DNA from: an uncultured bacterium
GTDB taxonomy: Bacteria; Verrucomicrobiota; Verrucomicrobiia; Verrucomicrobiales; DEV007
Length of the DNA stretch: 64,000 nt
Assembly (NCBI GenBank): GCA_963977015.1
Contig: CAXBMO010000021.1
Location: forward strand, 1 to 64,000
Reading direction: 5' to 3'
The notes beneath the pieces were generated by a model, which did not search any database, was not told the origin of the DNA, and saw only the letters and a list, made by a program, of their open reading frames with translations. The position numbers and the translations under genes were made by a program. Shown piece by piece: positions 1,693 to 12,012 of this stretch (positions within the stretch are counted from its first letter, which is position 1; each line of letters starts with the position of its first letter).

Positions 1693-4600
1693 TTACTGGC
1701 AGGCTTCACATTCCGTGCCATTCATCATCGCCTCGATGCTGCAGGCCTGTGCATCTTTTGGAGTCGGAGTTCCTTCCTGAGGAGTCGCGTTAGCTCCGCC
1801 TCCTCCAGCGATGCCCCGCACTTCCTTCTTCACGTCGATGGTCGATTTCTCGATGCTCGATGCGGCCAGGGTGCGCAAATAGTAAGTCGTTTTCAGACCT
1901 TTGTGCCAGGCGGAGCGATACATGTGCGAGAGCGTCTTCATGTCAGGCTTGGCCAGGAAGAGGTTCACCGACTGCGATTGGTCGATCCACTTCTGGCGGC
2001 GGCCAGCGGCGGCAATGAAGTATTCAAAATCGATCGCAAACGACGTAATATACTTCGCCTTGAGATCAGCTGGAATATCCGCGATTTCGCTCAATTCACC
2101 GTTGTGATACTTCAAACGGTCAATCATTCCCTGATTCCAGAGCCCCCTAGCCTTGAGATCACGAACAAGGTAAGGATTCAGCATGATGAAATCTCCGCCG
2201 AGGTTGCTCTTCACAAAGAGGTTCTTGTAGAGCGGCTCAATGCAGGGCGTGCTTCCCATGATGTTGGAAATGGTCGCGGTTGGAGCGATCGCAATCACAT
2301 TGGAGTTCCGCATTCCTTGGTTGCGGATCTTCTCACGAATCGGCTCCCAATCCATCTTGCCACCACGGGGGACATCAATCTTCACGCCACGCTCTTCTTC
2401 CAGAAGATCAATCGTGTCCTGAGGAAGAAGCCCGCGATCCCACTTGGAACCGGGATAGCTGGAGTAGTTGCCCTTCTCTTTTCCAATATCACTGGATGCC
2501 TCATAGGCATAGTAGGCAACGGCTTCCATGATCTCATCGTTGAATTCCACAGCTTCCTGGGAAGCGAAGGAAACATCCTTTTTATAGAGAGCATTTTGGA
2601 GCCCCATCACGCCCAACCCGATCGGCCGGTGGCGCATGTTTGCATTCTTCGCGGCATCAGTAGGATAGAAGTTGATGTCGATCACGTTGTCCAAGGCACG
2701 AACCGCGATGCGGATCGTCTCTCTCAACTTCTCGTGATCAATCTCGCCATTCTCATTGACGTGCTGCTCCAGAACGACTGAGCCCAGATTACAAACCGCG
2801 GTCTCATCGGCTCCGGTGTTCAACGTAATCTCCGTGCACAGATTGGAGCTGTGAATCACACCTGCGTGATCCTGAGGGCTCCGAACATTGCAGGGGTCTT
2901 TGAAGGTGATCCAGGGGTGCCCGGTCTCGAAGAGCATCCGCAGCATTCCTTTCCAGAGGTCAATCGCTTCCACCTCTTTCCCAAAGATCTCTCCCTTGCG
3001 AGCCATCTGCTCATACTCGGCATAACGCCCTTCAAAGGCTTTGCCGTAGAGGTCGTGGAGCTCTGGAGTTTCATTGGAACGGAAAAGCATCCACTTCTCC
3101 CGAGCTTCCATCCGCTTCATGAACAAATCCGGAATCCAGTTCGCGGTATTCATGTCATGAGTCCGGCGGCGATCGTCTCCCGTGTTCTTGCGAAGCTCCA
3201 GGAAGTCGAAGATATCACTATGCCAGGACTCCAGATACGCACAGCCCGATCCCTTTCGCTTTCCGCCCTGGTTGACGGCAACGAGTTGGTCGTTGTGCAG
3301 CTTGAGGAAGGGAATCACCCCCTGGCTCTCGCCGTTGGTCCCTTTGATATAGCTTCCCGTTCCGCGAACCGACGTCCAGCTGCCACCAAGTCCACCAGCC
3401 CATTTGGAGAGGTAGGCGTTTTCCGCAATCCCGCGATTCATGATCGACTCAATGCTGTCATCGACCTTGTAGAGATAGCAGGACGAAAGCTGCGAATGAA
3501 GCGTTCCTGAATTAAAGAGCGTTGGCGTTGAAGAACAAAAGCGCCGACTCTTATACAGGCGGTAGAGATCGATGATCTTCGACGTGGCGTCTTCTTCCTT
3601 ATAGAAGATGCCCATCGCAACTCGCATCCAGAACAGCTGAGGTGTTTCGAGACGGCGATGGCTGGCGGTCTTGTCGACAATCAAGTAACGATCATACATC
3701 GTCTGGATTCCCAGATAGTCGAAGTCCAGATCCGCCACGGGATCAATTGCCTCGGACAAGCTGTCCAAGTCGAGATTGGCCAATTCCGGATTTAGCCGCT
3801 CGATTTCGATTCCACGTCGCAGGTTCTCTTTGAAAGCCTTGCGGTGAAATTTGGGCAGCTGTTCGATTCCGTCCTGAACGATGCTCCACTCCAGCGTCTC
3901 TTCATAGATGTAGGTGAGCAGCAAACGACCGGCGAACTTGGAAAAATCCGCATCCTTCTCAACAAGGCTTTTGGCATTCAGAAGCAGCGTCGTGCGTAGT
4001 CCCTCCTCAGAAATCTCTCCAAAGATTGACCGGCGCAATTCCTGTTCAATGACATCAGGAGCCATGTCGATTTCCAGATTGATCATCGCAAACTCGATCC
4101 GCTTGCGTAAATCCAGACCGTCCCAAAGGTAGGTATCACCATTGGCCTTGGTTACGAGAACCATCGAATCCTGGCTGGAATCATCCTCACTCGGAGCCGA
4201 CTCCGCTTCCTGGTCTTCGCGAAGCCCCTTGCGGTGCTCCCGATAAATGATGTAGGCCCGGGCGGCACGACGATGCCCTTGCAGCATCAACTCGTCTTCC
4301 ACCATGTCCTGCAGATCCTCGATGTGGATATACTCGGTTCCACTTTCGAGCATCTTGGCCGTCAGCGCGCGTGCCACGTCCACAGCCGGCTCTGAATCCA
4401 TGTGCAGCGACAAGAATGACTTCCGCACCGCCAACTCGATCTTATCCGGATTCCACGCCACCAAATCTCCATTCCGGCGAATCACTTTGACCACACCTGC
4501 GGGCACCAGCTTCGGCCGGCTCCCATTTACGGGTGGTTTGTCAGCTTTATCACTCATGGAGAGATTCCGTTTCACCATCATGCTCCGGGCAATGTCGTAG

Positions 4601-4995
4601 GCATGATGTTGTTCGAGTGCTTTTTCGATCGTTCTCTTCAGTTCCTCCTCACTCAAAACCACCTTCCCCTCGGCATCGATGCCCTGATTTTCCAACAATT
4701 GGCGAACCACCGAAGTCGAAACCTGGGCAACCAACGAGCGGTTTTGCTCGGTGAAGATGTCCGTCTCATTCTTCGACAGGAGCAGATCCGTCAGCGCTGA
4801 CCCAACCGTGTTGGCAATGTCTTCCGGGTCCAGATTCCGACTTTCCGTCTCGGTTTGGATGACCAATCGGGACTCGGCAAGATCACTCCCGTTCAGGGCG
4901 ACTTCTCGCCAATTGAAACGGGGCTTTCTCTCGTCGGGCTCTGATGCATAGCGCTTGAGCGCCTGGTCTTCTTCAAAGAAGGTTCTTCCAATCAT
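1693..4995 (-). CDS. nrdA: Ribonucleoside-diphosphate reductase alpha subunit (class I) with long N-terminal ATP-cone region
   Basis: STPTLFNSGT, QLSSCYL, SNLCTEI (radical Cys), IAPTATIS, TTYYLR and C-terminal CEAC; ATP-cone starts VIRRNG and VTKANG plus a degenerate N-terminal cone. Confidence 0.97.
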   Translation of the reverse strand: MIGRTFFEEDQALKRYASEPDERKPRFNWREVALNGSDLAESRLVIQTETESRNLDPEDIANTVGSALTDLLLSKNETDIFTEQNRSLVAQVSTSVVRQLLENQGIDAEGKVVLSEEELKRTIEKALEQHHAYDIARSMMVKRNLSMSDKADKPPVNGSRPKLVPAGVVKVIRRNGDLVAWNPDKIELAVRKSFLSLHMDSEPAVDVARALTAKMLESGTEYIHIEDLQDMVEDELMLQGHRRAARAYIIYREHRKGLREDQEAESAPSEDDSSQDSMVLVTKANGDTYLWDGLDLRKRIEFAMINLEIDMAPDVIEQELRRSIFGEISEEGLRTTLLLNAKSLVEKDADFSKFAGRLLLTYIYEETLEWSIVQDGIEQLPKFHRKAFKENLRRGIEIERLNPELANLDLDSLSEAIDPVADLDFDYLGIQTMYDRYLIVDKTASHRRLETPQLFWMRVAMGIFYKEEDATSKIIDLYRLYKSRRFCSSTPTLFNSGTLHSQLSSCYLYKVDDSIESIMNRGIAENAYLSKWAGGLGGSWTSVRGTGSYIKGTNGESQGVIPFLKLHNDQLVAVNQGGKRKGSGCAYLESWHSDIFDFLELRKNTGDDRRRTHDMNTANWIPDLFMKRMEAREKWMLFRSNETPELHDLYGKAFEGRYAEYEQMARKGEIFGKEVEAIDLWKGMLRMLFETGHPWITFKDPCNVRSPQDHAGVIHSSNLCTEITLNTGADETAVCNLGSVVLEQHVNENGEIDHEKLRETIRIAVRALDNVIDINFYPTDAAKNANMRHRPIGLGVMGLQNALYKKDVSFASQEAVEFNDEIMEAVAYYAYEASSDIGKEKGNYSSYPGSKWDRGLLPQDTIDLLEEERGVKIDVPRGGKMDWEPIREKIRNQGMRNSNVIAIAPTATISNIMGSTPCIEPLYKNLFVKSNLGGDFIMLNPYLVRDLKARGLWNQGMIDRLKYHNGELSEIADIPADLKAKYITSFAIDFEYFIAAAGRRQKWIDQSQSVNLFLAKPDMKTLSHMYRSAWHKGLKTTYYLRTLAASSIEKSTIDVKKEVRGIAGGGGANATPQEGTPTPKDAQACSIEAMMNGTECEACQ

Positions 4996-5078
4996 AATTT
5001 TGAGTCTTTGTTTTGTGCGGTTTGCGTGGCGTAGGGTTGTGTTTGTGTTGGATGGTCAGTCCAGATTTCCAGGTCGTC

Positions 5079-6164
5079 TTAAAGATCGTCATCATCGAAT
5101 GATCCCAGGGCGGAAGCCTTCTGGTATTCGGTGACGCGTCCTTCGAAAAAGTTTTGCTCCTTGGTGATGTCCATCATCTCAGCCAACCAAGGGAATGGAT
5201 TGGTGATTCCTGGATTCAGCGGAGCCAGGCCGACACCGGTCAATCTCCGGTCGGCAATGTAATCAATGTACTGAGTGAATTCTTCAGCACTCAACCCAAC
5301 CGAATTCACCGGCAGGCAGTCTTGAATGAAGTCTTTCTCTAGATTGACCGCTTCAATCATCAGCTCCGTCAATTCGCGCTGAAAGTCAGGCGTCCAGATC
5401 TCCGGATTTTCCTCGATGAGATCCATCAGCAGATTGCGGAACACCTCGATGTGATTCGATTCATCGCGAAGCGTGTAACGGAACATCTGGCCGATGCCCG
5501 GAAACTTGTTCTGGCGATACAGACTCAAAATCATTCCGAACAGGCCGTAAAACTGCGTTCCCTCCATGCACTGCCCGAACACAAAGATGTTTTTCGCCAG
5601 CAGCTGCTTGTTTGCCGAATCCGTCAGATCGAGATCGCGGCGCAACTCCTTGGAAATTCGAGTCACGAACTCATTCTTGCGCCGAACCGTTTCAATCTGC
5701 TCGAACATCGCCTCACACTCATGGGGATTGATCCCCAAACTTGAAATCATATAGAGCAGGCTGTCGGCGTGAATGTTCTCCTCATGCGCATGCCGCCCCA
5801 ACACCAGCTTCAACTCGGGCGCGGTCACAACTTCGCGAACCACGTGAATGATGTTGTCGCCAACAATTCCTTCCGCCGCAGAAAAGTAGCCAATGCCCAT
5901 CCGGATGATCCAGCGCTCGTTCTCACTGATCGCATCGGCCGACTGCCACTGCTCAACATCCTTCTGCATCGGGATGTCCTCCGGCTCCCAATGATTGTTC
6001 TTCATCGTGCGATACAGATCGTAAGCCCAATGATATTTCAAGGGCAGCAGGTTGAACGCCATCGTGTCGCGTCCGTTGATGACCCGCTTTGCCGAGAAAG
6101 CCTCTTCCGCTTTATCCTGGTCAAGAATGAAAGTTTTATCGCCGATGTCGAAGGTCTTTTCCAT
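5079..6164 (-). CDS. nrdB: Ribonucleotide reductase beta subunit, class Ic (R2c, Mn/Fe)-like
   Basis: Ferritin-like ligands FSAAE98, E129NIH132, MEG..FY, DESNH; C-terminal NFFEGRVTEY; Leu136 at the tyrosyl-radical position. Confidence 0.95.
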   Translation of the reverse strand: MEKTFDIGDKTFILDQDKAEEAFSAKRVINGRDTMAFNLLPLKYHWAYDLYRTMKNNHWEPEDIPMQKDVEQWQSADAISENERWIIRMGIGYFSAAEGIVGDNIIHVVREVVTAPELKLVLGRHAHEENIHADSLLYMISSLGINPHECEAMFEQIETVRRKNEFVTRISKELRRDLDLTDSANKQLLAKNIFVFGQCMEGTQFYGLFGMILSLYRQNKFPGIGQMFRYTLRDESNHIEVFRNLLMDLIEENPEIWTPDFQRELTELMIEAVNLEKDFIQDCLPVNSVGLSAEEFTQYIDYIADRRLTGVGLAPLNPGITNPFPWLAEMMDITKEQNFFEGRVTEYQKASALGSFDDDDL

Positions 6165-7072: not shown

Positions 7073-7807
7073 TTGCATCCGTTCGCATTGAGCCCCCAAC
7101 CCTTTGAACGATTCGGCGCATCGCACTTGACGGTCCTTGCCCTGATTCCGGTGATCACGTTCGGCCTGTGCTATTTCGCGCGCCGAAACCCGGATTCGCA
7201 AGCCACTCGAATCCAGAACCGGGTTCTCGCTGCGATTCTCCTGTCTTCCTACCCGGTCAAGATCTGGTCGGGCCACATCGCGGGTTGGCCGGCAACGCCG
7301 CTGCCGATGCATCTCTGCGATTGGGTCGCGGTTCTTTGTGGCCTGGCGTTGATTCTGCGCAAACGCTGGATGGCCGAGTTGGCCTGGTTTTGGGGAATCA
7401 CCGGAACCGTTCAGGGCCTGGTGACCCCGATGCTGGCTCACGCCTTCCCTCACCCGCGCTTCTTTGCCTTCTTTCAGCTCCACGCCGGAGTCGTCATCTG
7501 CACCTTCTACCTGGTTTGGGGGCTTCGCCTGACCCCACGCCCGGGATCCGTCTGGCGGGCCTTTGGAGCACTGCAGATCTACACCCTCGCCGCGATCCTC
7601 ATCAATCTCTTGACCGGGCAAAACTACGGATTTCTCTGCCACAAACCCGACGCCACCTCCCTCCTCACCTATCTTGGCCCGTGGCCCGTCTATATCCTCA
7701 CTCTGGAAGCCCTCGCCCTGCTGCTCTTCACCCTCCTGTATCTGCCGTTCCGCACGATCGACCGTGAAACCAACCGCGGGTCAAAAAGCGAACCCGGAGA
7801 ATCCTGA
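7073..7807 (+). CDS. YwaF / TIGR02206-family integral membrane protein
   Basis: Multi-TM 244-aa ORF with LPMHLCD, FWGITGTVQGLVTP, NYGFLCHKP and LGPWPVYI motifs; TTG start uncertain. Confidence 0.85.
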   Translation: MHPFALSPQPFERFGASHLTVLALIPVITFGLCYFARRNPDSQATRIQNRVLAAILLSSYPVKIWSGHIAGWPATPLPMHLCDWVAVLCGLALILRKRWMAELAWFWGITGTVQGLVTPMLAHAFPHPRFFAFFQLHAGVVICTFYLVWGLRLTPRPGSVWRAFGALQIYTLAAILINLLTGQNYGFLCHKPDATSLLTYLGPWPVYILTLEALALLLFTLLYLPFRTIDRETNRGSKSEPGES

Positions 7808-8034
7808 CAAGAGATTCCATCCTCTCACAGGGTCATCAGGAAATGCGACGAGTTTGGGAGTCGAAGCGCCTGCCCAAACCTTCGCAGCCATGCAGCCGGA
7901 CGCGCCCGAAAATTGCGCGGCAGCCATTGCCAAGCCTGACATTCTGCCCCATGGTCCGCCTTCCATTCTTTGAGGTGACTTCGGAACCAAAGGCTAGGCA
8001 GAAAATTGACGCTCAGCTCAGCGCGGCAGGGTGG
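7799..8034 (+). repeat. 236-bp direct repeat, copy 1 (promoter + first 20 codons of hsdR)
   Basis: Colinear with 9807-10042 at offset 2008; 3' two-thirds nearly identical; contains TTGCCA-N17-CATGGT (7927-7955). Confidence 0.92.
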
Positions 8035-8178
8035 TCTGTTGTGCCCTCTGGTTCCCTCATTGTCAATGGTCCCACCGCCATCTGGCAGGCCTACGAAGCC
8101 CTCGAAAACATCCGCTCCTCCGACACCCAACGCCACTGGCTCGACGTCATCAAAAACTACGTCGCCCTCATCGCTTAA
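7975..8178 (+). pseudogene. hsdR: Type I restriction subunit R remnant (N-terminus fused to C-terminal scraps)
   Basis: VTSEPKARQKIDAQLSAAGW resembles HsdR N-termini; IWQAYEALE and QRHWLDVIKNYVA resemble EcoEI-R C-terminal segments; only 67 codons. Confidence 0.65.
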
Positions 8179-8185
8179 CGAGACC

Positions 8186-9417
8186 TTGGCCAAAAAGAAG
8201 ACAGCTTCGAATCTCAATAAAGCCCCTGCCAGCGCAGAGGAAAGCAGCCCCGTGCCCGGCGACTACCCGCAGCTGCTCGCTGCCGTGAAGAAACGGATTC
8301 AAACCGCACGCGTCCAGGCTCACCTCGCCGCCAACCGCGAGCTGGTGCAACTCTATTGGGATCTCGGCAAACTCATCGTCGAACGCCAAGAATCCCAAGG
8401 CTGGGGCAAAGCAGTCGTCAAGCGACTCTCCGGAGACCTATGCGTTGAATTCCCTGAAATGAATGGGCTTTCACTCTCCAGCCTCTGGCGGATGCGCTCT
8501 TTCTACCTTGCTTACAATCAGGAAATTGCAAATCTCGCACAACCTGTGCGAGATTTAAATATCACAGGCAAATCCTCCGAGAATCTCGCAAAGCCTATGC
8601 GAGATTTGCCTCGGGATTCAAATCTCCCACAACCTGTTGGAGAAATTCTAAACAGGTTGTTTCAGAAGTAGAGGACGGCAGGTGTCCGGCGTCCCTCCTT
8701 GCAATCCCCTGGGGACACAACATTTCGCTCGTCGAAAAACTCAAAGCCCCCACCCTCCGCCTCTGGTACGCCGCCCAGGCCGCCGAACACGGCTGGTCGC
8801 GCGCCGTCCTCGTCCACCAGATCGAGAGCGAACTCCACCTGCGCGCCACCAGCCAGGACAACAACTTCGCCGCCACCCTGCCCGATCCCCAATCCGATCT
8901 CGCTCGCGAGCTGATCAAAGACTCGTTCAACCTCGAGTTCCTCGACGTCCGCACCTCCATCCGCGAGCGCGAACTCGAAGAATCCCTCATCACCAACCTG
9001 CGCGATTTCCTCCTCGAACTCGGCACCGGCTTCGCCTTCATCGGCAACCAGTACCGCCTCGACATCGGCGGCCAAGCCTATTTTCTAGACCTCCTCTTCT
9101 ACCACACCCGCCTGCACTGCCACGTCGTCGTCGAGTTGAAAATCGACGCCTTCAAACCCGAGCACGCCGGCAAGATGCAGTTCTACCTCGCCGCCATCGA
9201 CGACCAGCTCAAGTCCGAACGCGACGCCCCAACCATCGGCATTCTGCTCTGCAAAGAGAAAAACAAAGTCGTCGTCGAATACGCCCTACGCGATGCCAGC
9301 AAGCCGATCGCCGTGGCGGACTACACGCTGAAGAAAACCCTGCCGAAGGAACTGAAGGGCGAGCTTCCAAGCGCGGCCGAGTTGAAGAAGCAACTGAAGG
9401 GAGAAGTAGGATCATGA
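8186..9417 (+). pseudogene. DUF1016 / YhcG-family PD-(D/E)XK nuclease, single-base frameshift near 8650
   Basis: Frame 2 gives NRELVQLYWDLG, GWGKAVV, LWRMRSFY; frame 1 from 8653 gives IPWGHN, WSRAVL, FLLELGTGFAF, DLLFYH, VELK, GKMQFYL, IGILLC; start TTG 8186 or GTG 8252. Confidence 0.9.
8530..8667 (+). repeat. Array of four in-frame coding palindromes inside the DUF1016 gene
   Basis: AAATCTCGCACA-ACC-TGTGCGAGATTT (8530-8556, perfect 12 bp); AATCTCGCA-N7-TGCGAGATT (8582-8606); 8620-8646 (9/12 pairs); TTCT[-]AAACA-GGT-TGTTTCAGAA (8646-8667). Confidence 0.9.
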
Positions 9418-9525
9418 TCACCCTCGTCCGCCACACTGTCGATCCCGAAACCGAGCCCTCGCGCCCTTCCCCAACCTCGTAAGCCAACGCTTCGACGCCA
9501 GGCTGCCCAACAGCAAACCGCGGCG
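9414..9525 (+). pseudogene. Further HsdR C-terminal-region remnant (frameshifted)
   Basis: ITLVRHTVDPETE / LAPFPNLVSQRFDA / AQQQTA read across frames; resembles the EcoEI-R C-domain segment lying between the two scraps at 8090-8178. Confidence 0.5.
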
Positions 9526-9806
9526 GATCGCTCAGCCAGTCTACTTCGCCTCGGCATTGGGGCTTTGAGCACCTTGCCCGCCGCATCTTAATGAATGCTG
9601 CCGAATTCAGGCGAATCTATTCGACCGGAGCAACTCCCTGTGTTTGGGATACAGCCTAGGATTAGGATAAGACTGCTGAGGTTGGTTAGGGATGAGCAAG
9701 GAGAACACGACATACCATACTTTTTTCCAGAGTGGCATGGAGTTGGATTCTGATCCCTATGATTACCAGGTGCGGCTGGCCGGCGTGGATCAAGGAACAA
9801 ACCTGC

Positions 9807-10042
9807 GAATCCTGACAAGAGATTCTATCCTCTCACAGGGTCGCCACGACACGCGCCCAGTTTTAGAGCCGAAAGCGCTGCCCAACCAATCGCAGCCAAG
9901 CAGCCGAATACGCCCGAAAATTGCGCGGCAGCCATTGCCAAGCCTGACATTCTGCCCTATGGTCCGCCTTCCATTCTTTGAGGTGACTTCGGAACCAAAG
10001 GCCAGGCAGAAATTCGGCACTCAGCTCAGCGCGGCTGGGTGG
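9807..10042 (+). repeat. 236-bp direct repeat, copy 2 (promoter + hsdR start)
   Basis: Matches 7799-8034; carries TTGCCA-N17-TATGGT (9935-9963), a sigma70-like promoter facing DUF5131-tcmP. Confidence 0.92.
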
Positions 10043-10139: not shown

Positions 10140-10928
10140 ATGAGTGCGAATTCCAAAATTGAGTGGACCGACGCGACGTGGAATCCGGTTCGCGGATGTA
10201 CCAAGGTCAGTCCCGGCTGCAAACACTGCTACGCAGAGACGTTTGCGGAGCGGTTCCGTGGTGTCCCGGGGCACCCCTTCGAGTTCGGCTTCGATCTCCG
10301 CATCGTCCCTGAGAAACTTGGAGATCCGATTAGGTGGTCTCGGCCACAGAAGGTCTTTGTTAATTCGATGAGCGACCTCTTTCACGAGGATGTTCCCGAC
10401 TCCTACATCGAGCAGGTATGCAAAGTAATGCTGGCCGCGAATTGGCACACCTATCAAGTCCTTACCAAACGTGCAGGTCGACTATCGCAACTGCTAAAAA
10501 GCAAACTCACCGACGGGGCTAAAGCATCGCACATTTGGTGGGGAGTAAGCGTTGAGGATCAGAGTTACGGGCTTCCTAGAATCGACCACCTTCGAGCCGC
10601 GAATCCCAGCAGCACCTTTTTGTCAATCGAACCTTTGCTGGAAGATTTAGGGGAATTCGACCTTGGCGGGATCGATTGGGTCATCGTTGGAGGCGAGAGC
10701 GGACACGGCGCCCGTCCCCTTCGGAAGCAATGGGTCCGAAATATACGCAAGCAGTGCCGGACGGCTGGAGTTCCATTTTTCTTTAAGCAATGGGGCGGCG
10801 TAAAAAAGAGCCTCAATGGCCGAACGCTGGACGGACGGACCTACGACGAGTTTCCAGAGTCATCCTCCCATCAAGTAGCCTCTTTCATTGAGCGAAAAGA
10901 ACTGATCGCGAGCCTAGCTTCAGCTTGA
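10140..10928 (+). CDS. DUF5131 / phage Gp37-Gp68 family three-Cys-motif (radical-SAM-like) protein
   Basis: SKIEWTDATWNPVRGCTKVSPGCKHCYA (CX6CX2C), FVNSMSDLFH, LTKR, SIEPLL, WVIVGGESG, PFFFKQWGG. Confidence 0.93.
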   Translation: MSANSKIEWTDATWNPVRGCTKVSPGCKHCYAETFAERFRGVPGHPFEFGFDLRIVPEKLGDPIRWSRPQKVFVNSMSDLFHEDVPDSYIEQVCKVMLAANWHTYQVLTKRAGRLSQLLKSKLTDGAKASHIWWGVSVEDQSYGLPRIDHLRAANPSSTFLSIEPLLEDLGEFDLGGIDWVIVGGESGHGARPLRKQWVRNIRKQCRTAGVPFFFKQWGGVKKSLNGRTLDGRTYDEFPESSSHQVASFIERKELIASLASA

Positions 10929-10932
10929 CCGA

Positions 10933-12012
10933 ATGCCCCGCGAAGAATTTCACGACAAGCCCTACGATGAGGGCACGCTTACAAAGCTAAGTATCTTTGA
11001 GCTCTACGTTCAGGAATGGCTTCCTGTATTCCTATCGCAGCCAGAGCCTCCATTCGAGGAACTACACATTTTTGATTTCTTTGCCGGTCCTGGAAAAGAT
11101 GCCAATGGCGTCTTGGGATCTCCCCTCCGAATACTCAGACAGCTGCAGTCCTATCACCAATCGACGCTTGCAGGTTGGGGCGCAGTAGAAAAAACAACCC
11201 ATTTTTTCGATCTAGCCGAAGATAAGATCGAAGTCTTGCGGAACACTATATCATCGGAGGCACTTGACGTGCCTGGCGTAAATCTCGACCTGAAGCCCAA
11301 TGAGTTCACTGCGGCCCTTCACGAATTCCGACCGGTTCTTAAGAATCCCCGCGCGGCCAAGTTTTTGATTATCGATCAGTTTGGTGTGGATGCAGTTAGC
11401 GATAAAGTGTTCCTCGACCTAATATCATTCCCCACTACCGATTTCATATTTTTCCTATCCTCGTCGACTCTGCACCGTTTCCGAGAGCATCCTGCAATTA
11501 AGCAGAAAATTGCCAACATCGACGACTCATACCACGTCCATCGGGCGACTTTCGAATACTATAAGAACCTGATTCCAGAACAGGAAGACGTTTCCCTTGG
11601 GCAGTTTTCAATTCGGAAGCGAAGCAACATTTACGGGCTTATTTTTGGTAGCCAGCACCCGCTTGGGATTCACAAATTTTTGCAGGTTGCATGGAAAAAC
11701 GACCAGATCGCCGGCGAGGCAAATTTTGACGTCGAGCGGGAAAACATTGGGAACGATGAGCTCCTCTTGGAATTTGAGGAAATGAAGCCCAAGAAGATTC
11801 AAGGTTTCGAGAACGCTTTAGCCGAAAGCCTTCGATCAAAGGGTCTCCTTACCGAGGCAGACATTATCAAATTCTGCATCGAAGCAGGTATGACCGCCCA
11901 GCACGCAGCACCGGTAATCGCAAAACTCAAAAAGGAGAAGGTCTTGGCCGCCGATTTCAGAGTGCCTAATGTGCGCAACACCAAAGAGCCCCGCCCCATT
12001 AACTATCTGTAA
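10933..12012 (+). CDS. tcmP: Three-Cys-motif partner protein (TcmP-like, SAM-binding fold)
   Basis: Starts 4 nt after DUF5131; N-terminal TLTKL..F..Y...W and DFFAGPG motif; IDQFG in place of the usual DP(F/Y)G; AT-richer than flanks. Confidence 0.8.
   Translation: MPREEFHDKPYDEGTLTKLSIFELYVQEWLPVFLSQPEPPFEELHIFDFFAGPGKDANGVLGSPLRILRQLQSYHQSTLAGWGAVEKTTHFFDLAEDKIEVLRNTISSEALDVPGVNLDLKPNEFTAALHEFRPVLKNPRAAKFLIIDQFGVDAVSDKVFLDLISFPTTDFIFFLSSSTLHRFREHPAIKQKIANIDDSYHVHRATFEYYKNLIPEQEDVSLGQFSIRKRSNIYGLIFGSQHPLGIHKFLQVAWKNDQIAGEANFDVERENIGNDELLLEFEEMKPKKIQGFENALAESLRSKGLLTEADIIKFCIEAGMTAQHAAPVIAKLKKEKVLAADFRVPNVRNTKEPRPINYL

Follow-up and report, generated by a model that had tools for sequence, protein, structure and literature searches.

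Two known kinds of palindromic DNA come close to the element described here, namely palindromes that lie in frame within genes, and inverted repeats that are kept by template switching. In-frame protein-coding palindromes were reportedly found in Rickettsia by Ogata and co-workers in 2000 and 2002. These palindromic elements span approximately 100–150 bp, occur scattered through numerous unrelated genes within a single genus, and behave as selfish insertions. The element in question is a block of palindromic units at positions 8530–8667 of a 64,000-nucleotide stretch of DNA from an uncultured bacterium of the Verrucomicrobiales (DEV007; GenBank assembly GCA_963977015.1, contig CAXBMO010000021.1, positions 1 to 64,000 of the forward strand); this whole stretch is referred to as the window. 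The units lie within a gene of the YhcG/DUF1016 family (COG4804), which is very widespread and so far only a predicted nuclease. The palindrome is an ancestral, family-wide trait and is not peculiar to the gene in the window. As in the Rickettsia elements, in-frame palindromic DNA adds a tolerated peptide segment to a protein; in contrast, a YhcG unit comprises approximately 27 nt, is limited to the gene family and its immediate flank, and is ancestral. An element of the Rickettsia type was rejected because the units are confined to the homologous site of one gene family.

Further similarities exist to repetitive extragenic palindromic (REP) sequences, bacterial interspersed mosaic elements (BIMEs) and the REP-associated tyrosine transposases (RAYTs). 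Here, too, palindromes of 20–40 nt, which often occur in tandem, are associated with a nuclease-type gene. However, REPs are extragenic and present in tens to hundreds of copies, whereas the YhcG units are intragenic and found nowhere else in the genome of the window; RAYT is an HUH enzyme, whereas YhcG is a PD-(D/E)XK nuclease. A dispersed repeat of the REP/BIME type was rejected, since the arm pattern of units 1 and 2 has no other site in the 6.9-Mb genome when up to two mismatches are allowed, and since the unit core of Escherichia coli K-12 occurs only in or beside yhcG. The "TAEL" repeats of the type I specificity subunit HsdS from EcoR124I/II are non-palindromic and form a structured spacer that sets the target spacing. 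Both they and the YhcG units are short in-frame repeats whose number varies between alleles of a restriction-related gene, but in YhcG the repeated element is a dyad at the DNA level, and the protein region that it encodes is modelled with low confidence. The cruciform-forming inverted repeat of ColE1 has a 13-bp stem and a 5-nt loop. The YhcG units resemble repeats of this type in their arm length, their short centre and their AT-rich surroundings; they differ in that their supercoil-dependent extrusion is putative.

Inverted repeats that are kept by template switching share with the YhcG dyad the near-perfect arms and a conservation beyond expectation, and possibly also joint changes on both arms and flips of the centre base. 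In contrast to them, the YhcG dyad is tied to one protein family, lies inside the reading frame in a fixed codon phase, and has been retained across phyla as well as in the course of horizontal transfer; the repeats analysed by Lavi et al. 2018 (PMC5941160) are non-coding only. We rate the YhcG case as a new variation on both known kinds. The feature appears not to have been described previously: the full-text literature, whose coverage excludes paywalled papers and supplements, yielded no description of palindromes inside YhcG/DUF1016 genes.

Palindromic units in the yhcG gene of the window

The gene and the palindromic structures contained in it are as follows.

8186–9417, forward strand: YhcG-family gene (DUF1016_N plus YhcG_C PD-(D/E)XK domain) with a one-base frame change, assigned from open reading frames, Pfam and PADLOC
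8530–8556: unit 1, dyad centre 8543, perfect 12-bp arms around a 3-nt centre (12/12), NLAQPVRDL
8582–8606: unit 2, dyad centre 8594, NLAKPMRDL, 88% identical to unit 1
about 8620–8646: unit 3, dyad centre 8633, degraded (9/12), NLPQPVGEI
about 8645–8667: unit 4, dyad centre 8656, other arm type, bulged
8629–8638 and 8651–8660: arms of a perfect 10-bp pairing that alternatively links the centre of unit 3 with that of unit 4

The original prediction, which was made from the letters of the window, had claimed four in-frame hairpin units at 8530–8667 with centres in the same codon phase. They were found as claimed, between the LWRMRSFY block and IPWGHN, in the part of the gene that codes for a linker. 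All 12 arm positions of unit 1 are paired, as predicted. In unit 2, 11 of the 12 arm bases are complementary (10 of 12 when offsets 2–13 are scored). Unit 4 was said to be self-complementary in spite of its different arms; this holds for 7 of 12 positions without gaps and for nine pairs if one bulged base is allowed. Units 1–3 are direct repeats (100, 88 and 81% identity) with a spacing of 51 and 39 nt. Their dyad centres 8543, 8594 and 8633 occupy codon position 1 of the upstream frame, from which NLAQPVRDL, NLAKPMRDL and NLPQPVGEI are translated directly. The centre of unit 4 (8656) is at position 1 of the downstream frame; KQVVSEV lies in this other frame, so that the predicted peptide ILKQVVSEV indeed requires repair of a frameshift.

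Folding of positions 8515–8680 as single-stranded DNA yielded −39.6 kcal/mol, compared to −16.5 ± 2.9 kcal/mol for dinucleotide shuffles (z = −8.1; none of 200 shuffles equals it), and the 10-bp pairing of 8629–8638 with 8651–8660 appears in the minimum-energy fold. The G+C content of the block is 43.5% versus 56–61% across the remaining gene, in agreement with the predicted AT-richness. The 6.9-Mb genome contains 58 perfect stems of at least 11 bp and 33 of at least 12 bp (loops of 0–7 nt); unit 1 is among the latter.

Several known structures were considered and rejected. The units do not form a CRISPR array, since they follow each other at 39–51 nt from start to start with gaps of 12–24 nt and lie in frame inside a gene, whereas a CRISPR array has extragenic repeats of 28–37 nt and unique spacers of about the same length. 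An intrinsic terminator was dismissed because a terminator-like site, that is a G+C-rich stem plus a T-run, is absent from both strands at 8530–8667, where no T-run follows the stems. A promoter scan yielded no site at these positions. A known structured RNA family was rejected as well, since a permissive search of 7800–9700 against Rfam 15 produced no match close to the gathering score (best hit 17.5 bits versus 56; all E ≥ 1.4).

The reading frame of the gene is interrupted. The upstream frame runs from a TTG start at 8186 to a stop at 8669–8671 according to the open reading frames and translations; the downstream frame is already open at 8530 and continues to the stop at 9415–9417. A continuous frame is missing due to a frame change near 8649/8650, after which the remainder of the protein (…KQVVSEVEDGRCPASLLAIPWGHN…) is encoded one base out of step. 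Pfam assigned DUF1016_N (PF17761) with E-values of 2.7e-24 in the upstream and 1.2e-11 in the downstream frame, and the YhcG_C PD-(D/E)XK domain (PF06250) with 2.6e-64. The D ... E-x-K nuclease motif, as defined for the family by Kosinski et al. 2005 (PMC1189080), is present in the translation as LDLLFYH and VELK. The gene corresponds to the PADLOC defence candidate PDC-S02, and no second yhcG copy was found in the 6.9-Mb genome.

A homologue from a genome of the same genus (G002) is 89% identical to the window over the C-terminal part. There, the stem that corresponds to unit 4 is perfect over 11 bp, contains one base more and reads through in frame. Relative to G002, the window is without one base in the left arm of unit 4, near 8649/8650, and both the bulge of unit 4 and the frame change are due to this single loss. 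A programmed −1 frameshift at unit 4 was rejected, because there is no slippery heptamer and because the homologue with the extra base reads through; the frame change is therefore read as a mutation. The window copy of yhcG is thus a pseudogene. The yhcG of G002 is damaged as well: its upstream part has undergone a frame change and lacks the LSLSSLWRMRS block.

It is practically negligible as an explanation that the block is an artefact of assembly or sequencing of a low-coverage metagenome bin. The depth in Logan contigs is only 3–5, the contigs of one run break within the block at 8574 and 8656, and a one-base frameshift could be an error. However, the contigs of two separately assembled runs cover 8451–9000 and 8462–8893 and show zero differences, so that neither the units nor the frameshift can have been created by the bin assembler; all four runs are from one study, which is possibly the window's own source, and no RNA run was among the sequencing runs listed. 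Moreover, more than 100 unrelated assemblies, finished E. coli genomes among them, show this architecture as well. Within-population variants at the units were not found in the Logan contigs, where rare forms could escape at this depth.

Conservation of the dyad and its nature as nucleic acid

For a comparison within the family, 109 homologous loci were collected, 29 from 61 related genomes and 80 from many phyla. The latter were found with a query alignment of seven sequences and include Pseudomonas, Burkholderiales, Verrucomicrobia, Myxococcales, cyanobacteria, actinobacteria and a metagenome-assembled genome (MAG) of the Methanosarcinales. A script retained those 78 loci that have one frame of at least 250 residues and contain both the N-terminal motif of the family and the nuclease motif; the 31 dropped loci are fragments, broken genes, or genes whose N-terminal motif is outside the script pattern. 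A unit was defined by at least 9 complementary positions out of 12. Individual loci are designated by L-numbers.

At least one unit is present in the linker region of 76 of the 78 genes, and a manual check of four dropped loci (L004, L019, L026, L027) revealed units in all of them. The 14.0 kb of linker region contain 104 units, compared to 39 in the other 69.6 kb. The dyad centre is at codon position 1 in 100 of the 104 units, and the position within the gene is fixed at approximately 310 nt from the trimmed start. The unit-bearing genes include subfamilies with approximately 30% identity and stem from bacteria, one archaeal MAG and viral contigs. In the latter, a search with a distant subfamily member yielded 18 loci; all 16 full-length genes contain the dyad. 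The longest perfect stems in the family comprise 16–18 bp. For example, yhcG from E. coli K-12, the namesake of the family, has three units 39 nt apart with 11, 11 and 12 of 12 positions paired, which encode EIHQTMSGEL, GIPQTPSAEF and KIWQTLSAKS. G002 likewise has three units, whose arms differ in sequence (EILKQAVAEL, SILAQPAREV and EVLKQAVSEF; 10–11 of 12 paired).

The original prediction had assumed that a single motif is usual in the family. This is correct for 60 of the 76 unit-bearing genes, whereas the other 16 have two (6 genes), three (8) or four (2). Overall, the number of units ranges between 1 and 5, with 1 to 3 in the individual E. coli strains. Two loci, L055 and L095, contain two yhcG paralogues of different subfamilies in tandem, each of which has its own unit type.

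In order to separate this symmetry from the protein code, the codons of each of the 78 genes were shuffled synonymously within the gene (200 shuffles per gene). The longest perfect stem of the linker region has a mean length of 9.9 bp versus 4.4 bp after shuffling, and the excess over synonymous shuffles that had been proposed as a check is thus present in the homologues. The observed stem was reached by none of the 200 shuffles in 48 genes and by at most two in 57. Outside the linker region, the corresponding values are 6.42 and 6.45, and none of the 78 genes stands out.

Covariation was assessed in an ungapped alignment of 97 distinct units, which were preselected for at least 9 of 12 pairs. 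Two-sided changes occur at all 12 pairs and fill 206 cells, compared to 55.9 ± 5.7 in shuffled data (none of 500 as high). The covariation score is 0.545; it is 0.162 after shuffling and at most 0.095 if the partners are slid by 1–3 columns. The earlier view that symmetry rather than sequence is conserved is therefore supported by the covariation of all pairs.

Codon usage points in the same direction. The G+C content at third codon positions (GC3) is 0.40 in units versus 0.73 elsewhere, and it is lower in each of the 76 genes. In GC-rich genes, ATT accounts for 74% of the Ile codons in units versus 19% elsewhere, TTG for 53% versus 13% of the Leu codons, and CAA for 63% versus 28% of the Gln codons. 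The AT-rich outer ends and the codon phase of the dyad are kept even in genomes with a GC3 near 0.8. In the 54 single-unit genes, codon identity at shared amino acids is 78.4% inside and 47.0% outside the units, whereas amino-acid identity is 0.60 and 0.66, respectively. Together, this says that the nucleic acid, and not the peptide, is what is conserved.

The peptide motif can even be lost. In L121 (11 of 12 pairs), L122 and L123 (10 of 12), which are from viral contigs, the dyad lies in another phase and the motif has disappeared. The peptide that is absent from these three loci is the usual one of the I-x-Q-x-x-S type. Since the dyad outlasts the motif, the peptide looks like a passenger, and the idea that a diversified peptide is the product of this segment was not supported. 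An AlphaFold2 model of the four-unit protein from L005 has pLDDT (predicted local distance difference test) values of 40–55 at residues 101–140 and above 90 on either side; the underlying alignment is mostly gapped over the unit region, which by itself lowers the confidence. The unit region is thus modelled as for a flexible linker.

These observations bear on the proposal that the block is a cassette diversifying a peptide for specificity, or an operator to which a dimeric protein binds in a sequence-specific manner. Close relatives do differ in the number of units and in their arms, palindromes are classical dimer sites, and type I HsdS specificity can be changed via the number of short tandem repeats. 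Nevertheless, we regard this proposal as very improbable: the unit region is modelled as a flexible linker with low confidence, the peptide motif can vanish while the dyad remains, and, apart from the gene-adjacent copy in K-12, neither the genome of the window nor the K-12 chromosome contains other unit copies that could be targets. Moreover, the arms differ between units of one gene, and a single sequence-specific binder would therefore not fit all of them. Nothing was found to indicate programmable specificity, which the original prediction had envisaged.

The mismatches in the 104 units were used to distinguish DNA from RNA. A structure that is selected in the sense RNA should tolerate G·T far better than A·C; as 30 G·T and 37 A·C mismatches were counted, there is no such excess and DNA is favoured. 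Furthermore, complementarity extends close to the dyad centre, with 81% at offset 2 and 53% at offset 1. It is therefore plausible to assume that the element acts as DNA in which both strands are treated alike. The alternative is a hairpin in the mRNA at a domain boundary, which would slow the ribosome, serve as a site for an RNase, or bind a protein, and so limit a potentially toxic nuclease. It would account for the fixed unit position at approximately 310 nt, for the high stability of the stems and for the rare-codon clusters that the units represent, and additional units would have an additive effect. We consider it quite improbable, given the missing excess of G·U-type pairs (a test that is not decisive in view of template-switch correction), the pairing up to 1–2 bases from the centre, which is needless for an RNA loop, and the above-mentioned lack of a T-run after the stems and of an Rfam match.

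Turnover of the units and decay of the locus

The segment was predicted to be hypervariable, and comparison of close relatives supports this. The window contains three units of one arm type plus one of another, whereas G002 has one each of three types in a different order. Between close relatives, the unit number shifts in multiples of 3 nt (spacings 24–57 nt). Among 5,426 complete E. coli genomes, 4,468 match yhcG and 3,538 cover at least 80% of it; the allele classes given here are a selection. In contrast to the three units of K-12, O157:H7 has one unit, as the result of a 78-nt deletion, and the strains NMBU_W05E18 and MMC-J-0085 each carry two units whose arms are different, in a locally diverged segment of an otherwise near-identical gene. 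The BL21-type allele (L115), which is common in complete E. coli genomes among the matches listed, breaks off precisely at the right-hand border of unit 3 (gene nt 406) and is followed by foreign DNA that contains a piece of a transposase gene. In strain LR-71-1 (L116), IS1 is located inside the left arm of unit 3, and the two truncations represent two independent breakpoints at this unit. An inversion of the C-terminal segment between units was not found among the 45 matches listed out of 4,468.

K-12 contains an extra perfect unit 20 nt after the yhcG stop (L113, 10970–10998). It lies outside the frame, would read ILQTVSAES if translated in frame, and is the only other exact match of the unit core in the K-12 chromosome. 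In MMC-J-0085, this downstream unit carries a mirrored change on both arms relative to K-12 within near-identical flanks; its arms thereby equal those of an intragenic unit of another strain. In O157, the sole difference to K-12 is G/C at the exact centre. Mirrored and central changes are the expected signature of template switching or of gene conversion between units, the evidence being one double change and one centre difference in the downstream unit of E. coli. The earlier suggestion that template switching drives the diversification is thus plausible in view of the mirrored change. A deletion ending at the downstream unit was rejected for the BL21-type allele, since its right junction is approximately 15–20 nt past that unit. 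The downstream unit is also no general cassette boundary, because it is absent from the 400 nt 3′ of the other 78 genes, where the scan returned four matches that are all neighbouring paralogues or unrelated stems.

Copies also occur at further sites. In L019 (gene nt 555 and 663) and L027 (240 and 348), a near-identical second dyad is located 108 nt upstream, and each pair flanks a conserved G-F-S…N-L…M-R-x-F segment. L012 (gene nt 312 and 495) has an extra unit in a second linker, before the nuclease domain, and a similar dyad lies 17 nt after the stop of L121.

The main rival explanation, which is a serious one although we consider it rather unlikely, is a neutral palindrome that perpetuates itself. 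According to this explanation, an ancestral quasi-palindrome in a permissive linker has no function, its peptide is tolerated, template switching reverts arm mutations or copies them to the other arm, and slippage leads to the duplication or loss of entire units. Hairpins can reportedly be generated and preserved by template switching (Mönttinen and Löytynoja 2022, PMC8794818), and Lavi et al. 2018 (PMC5941160) favour a preferential correction of imperfect inverted repeats in E. coli. The mirrored double change and the G/C difference between K-12 and O157 affect a non-coding unit copy, dyads survive in two pseudogenes (the window and G002), the mismatches show no G·T excess (30 versus 37), and the unit region is modelled like a linker at low confidence; all of this fits a neutral process. 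The near-universal retention in 76 of 78 and 16 of 16 genes across subfamilies of approximately 30% identity does not: an unselected 27-nt element can be removed by one in-frame deletion and should therefore be absent more often. Retention of AT-rich ends and codon phase at a GC3 near 0.8 also speaks against neutrality, as does the state of the window, in which the dyad beside PW.H has decayed and the upstream copies are perfect, as if one good dyad suffices.

The surroundings of the window gene are in decay as well. Two flanking features belong to the locus.

7791–8034, forward strand: left copy of a 244-nt direct repeat, which holds the start of an HsdR-like frame
9799–10042, forward strand: right copy of this direct repeat (244 nt), with 87% identity to the left one

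The two copies flank the yhcG pseudogene on both sides, and each of them holds the start of the HsdR-like frame (…EVTSEPKARQK…SAAGW). Both the window and the G002 copy of yhcG lie amid fragments of a type I restriction R subunit; the G002 gene lies between HSDR_N/ResIII and EcoEI_R_C fragments, at whose ends C-terminal pieces are repeated. The locus looks like a scrambled type I restriction locus, and the surroundings of the window yhcG are a decaying defence island. Both this pseudogene state and the family-wide ancestry of the palindrome were overlooked in the original prediction. The two genes directly 3′ of the pseudogene (10140–12012, forward strand) correspond to the two parts of the PADLOC candidate system PDC-M30 (B and A, E approximately 1e-102), and one of them encodes a DUF5131 protein (PF07505). 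At 1693–6164 on the reverse strand, the genes for the large and small subunits of a class I ribonucleotide reductase (ATP-cone) are located; these are ordinary housekeeping genes that adjoin the remnant of the defence island.

Possible role of the palindromic module

Kosinski et al. 2005 (PMC1189080) placed the YhcG domain nearest to the archaeal Holliday-junction resolvases. In a Foldseek search, which gave no match at an E-value of 0.001 or better, chains of the resolvase Hjc were found with E-values of 3.4e-3 to 2e-2 and TM-scores of 0.43–0.51 on the target; a sequence search of the PDB returned no relative of YhcG. Hu et al. 2009 (PMC2672614) observed synthetic lethality when a yhcG deletion was combined with hypomorphs of dnaB, dnaN and parE, and suggested that the gene takes part in the resolution of replication intermediates. 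YhcG/DUF1016 genes are furthermore enriched beside type I restriction systems, targets of programmed inversions and phase-variable loci (PMC9881135).

In the explanation that we favour, and which falls a little short of probable, a palindromic DNA module of the YhcG family has expanded in tandem to four copies in the block of the window; the module would act in cis and be coupled to the nuclease of its own gene. It comprises approximately 27 nt with arms of 12–13 bp whose outer ends are AT-rich, has its dyad centre at codon position 1, and is located in the linker-coding stretch that separates the N-terminal helical part from the (P/S)W.H motif. It may act as DNA through the formation of a hairpin or a cruciform. 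Arm-to-arm template switching, combined with selection for at least one good dyad, would keep the arms complementary, and the repeated peptide would be a tolerated passenger; units are duplicated and lost in multiples of 3 nt. With low confidence, we infer that the module is a cis-acting structure that is recognized by the PD-(D/E)XK nuclease encoded by the same gene. The coupling to the gene's own product is suggested by the placement near Hjc, the weak Foldseek matches to Hjc, and the synthetic lethality. Self-recognition may result in autoregulation, or in a module of nuclease plus substrate that travels as one gene.

A bolder version, which we judge to be clearly unlikely, regards YhcG and its palindromes as a self-contained nuclease-plus-substrate module and thus as a miniature counterpart of REP/RAYT. 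An Hjc-like nuclease would then act on a hairpin or cruciform extruded from its own gene. This might provide feedback on its own expression, might cut the chromosome at this site once supercoiling or replication is disturbed by an invading phage, or might drive the duplication and gene conversion through which units reach other linkers and the 3′ flank.

A number of observations weigh against a functional module that is coupled to YhcG. Two of the 78 genes are without any unit. Seven intact genes (L033, L037, L040, L041, L045, L049 and L060) have perfect stems of at most 5 bp and only 9–10 of 12 pairs. Most members of this subgroup with a degraded dyad are from Pseudomonas and encode EFVQQAAAQL or a similar peptide; the subgroup is a natural contrast group for functional tests. 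The preselection for at least 9 of 12 pairs inflates the percentage of paired positions, but not the variety of pair types, and counts across genes overstate independence because the genes are related. The low synonymous change within units can result from pairing alone, since codon position 3 pairs with position 2 of a codon in the other arm, which is under protein selection. The G·T test is weakened, since a correction by template switching would also remove G·T pairs. The likeness to Hjc is weak (best E 3.4e-3, TM-score about 0.47 on the target), and both the formation of a hairpin or cruciform and its contact with YhcG are predictions. Finally, the covariation, the lack of a wobble excess, the perfect arms and the persistence in pseudogenes are equally expected from template switching without any function.

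The finding has consequences for the family as a whole. A palindrome that is fixed in position, covaries, and occurs across phyla including E. coli K-12 is the first concrete handle on the role of the YhcG family, whose members may act on folded DNA. The best-known peptide motif of the N-terminal domain may reflect the symmetry of the DNA and not a protein function, which matters for alignments and domain models that make use of this motif. The YhcG dyads are also a clean natural system for studying the survival of palindromes inside genes, and the questions raised by them can be tested directly in E. coli K-12. If it is true that the nuclease acts on the structure formed by its own gene, YhcG and its palindrome would represent a new kind of module.

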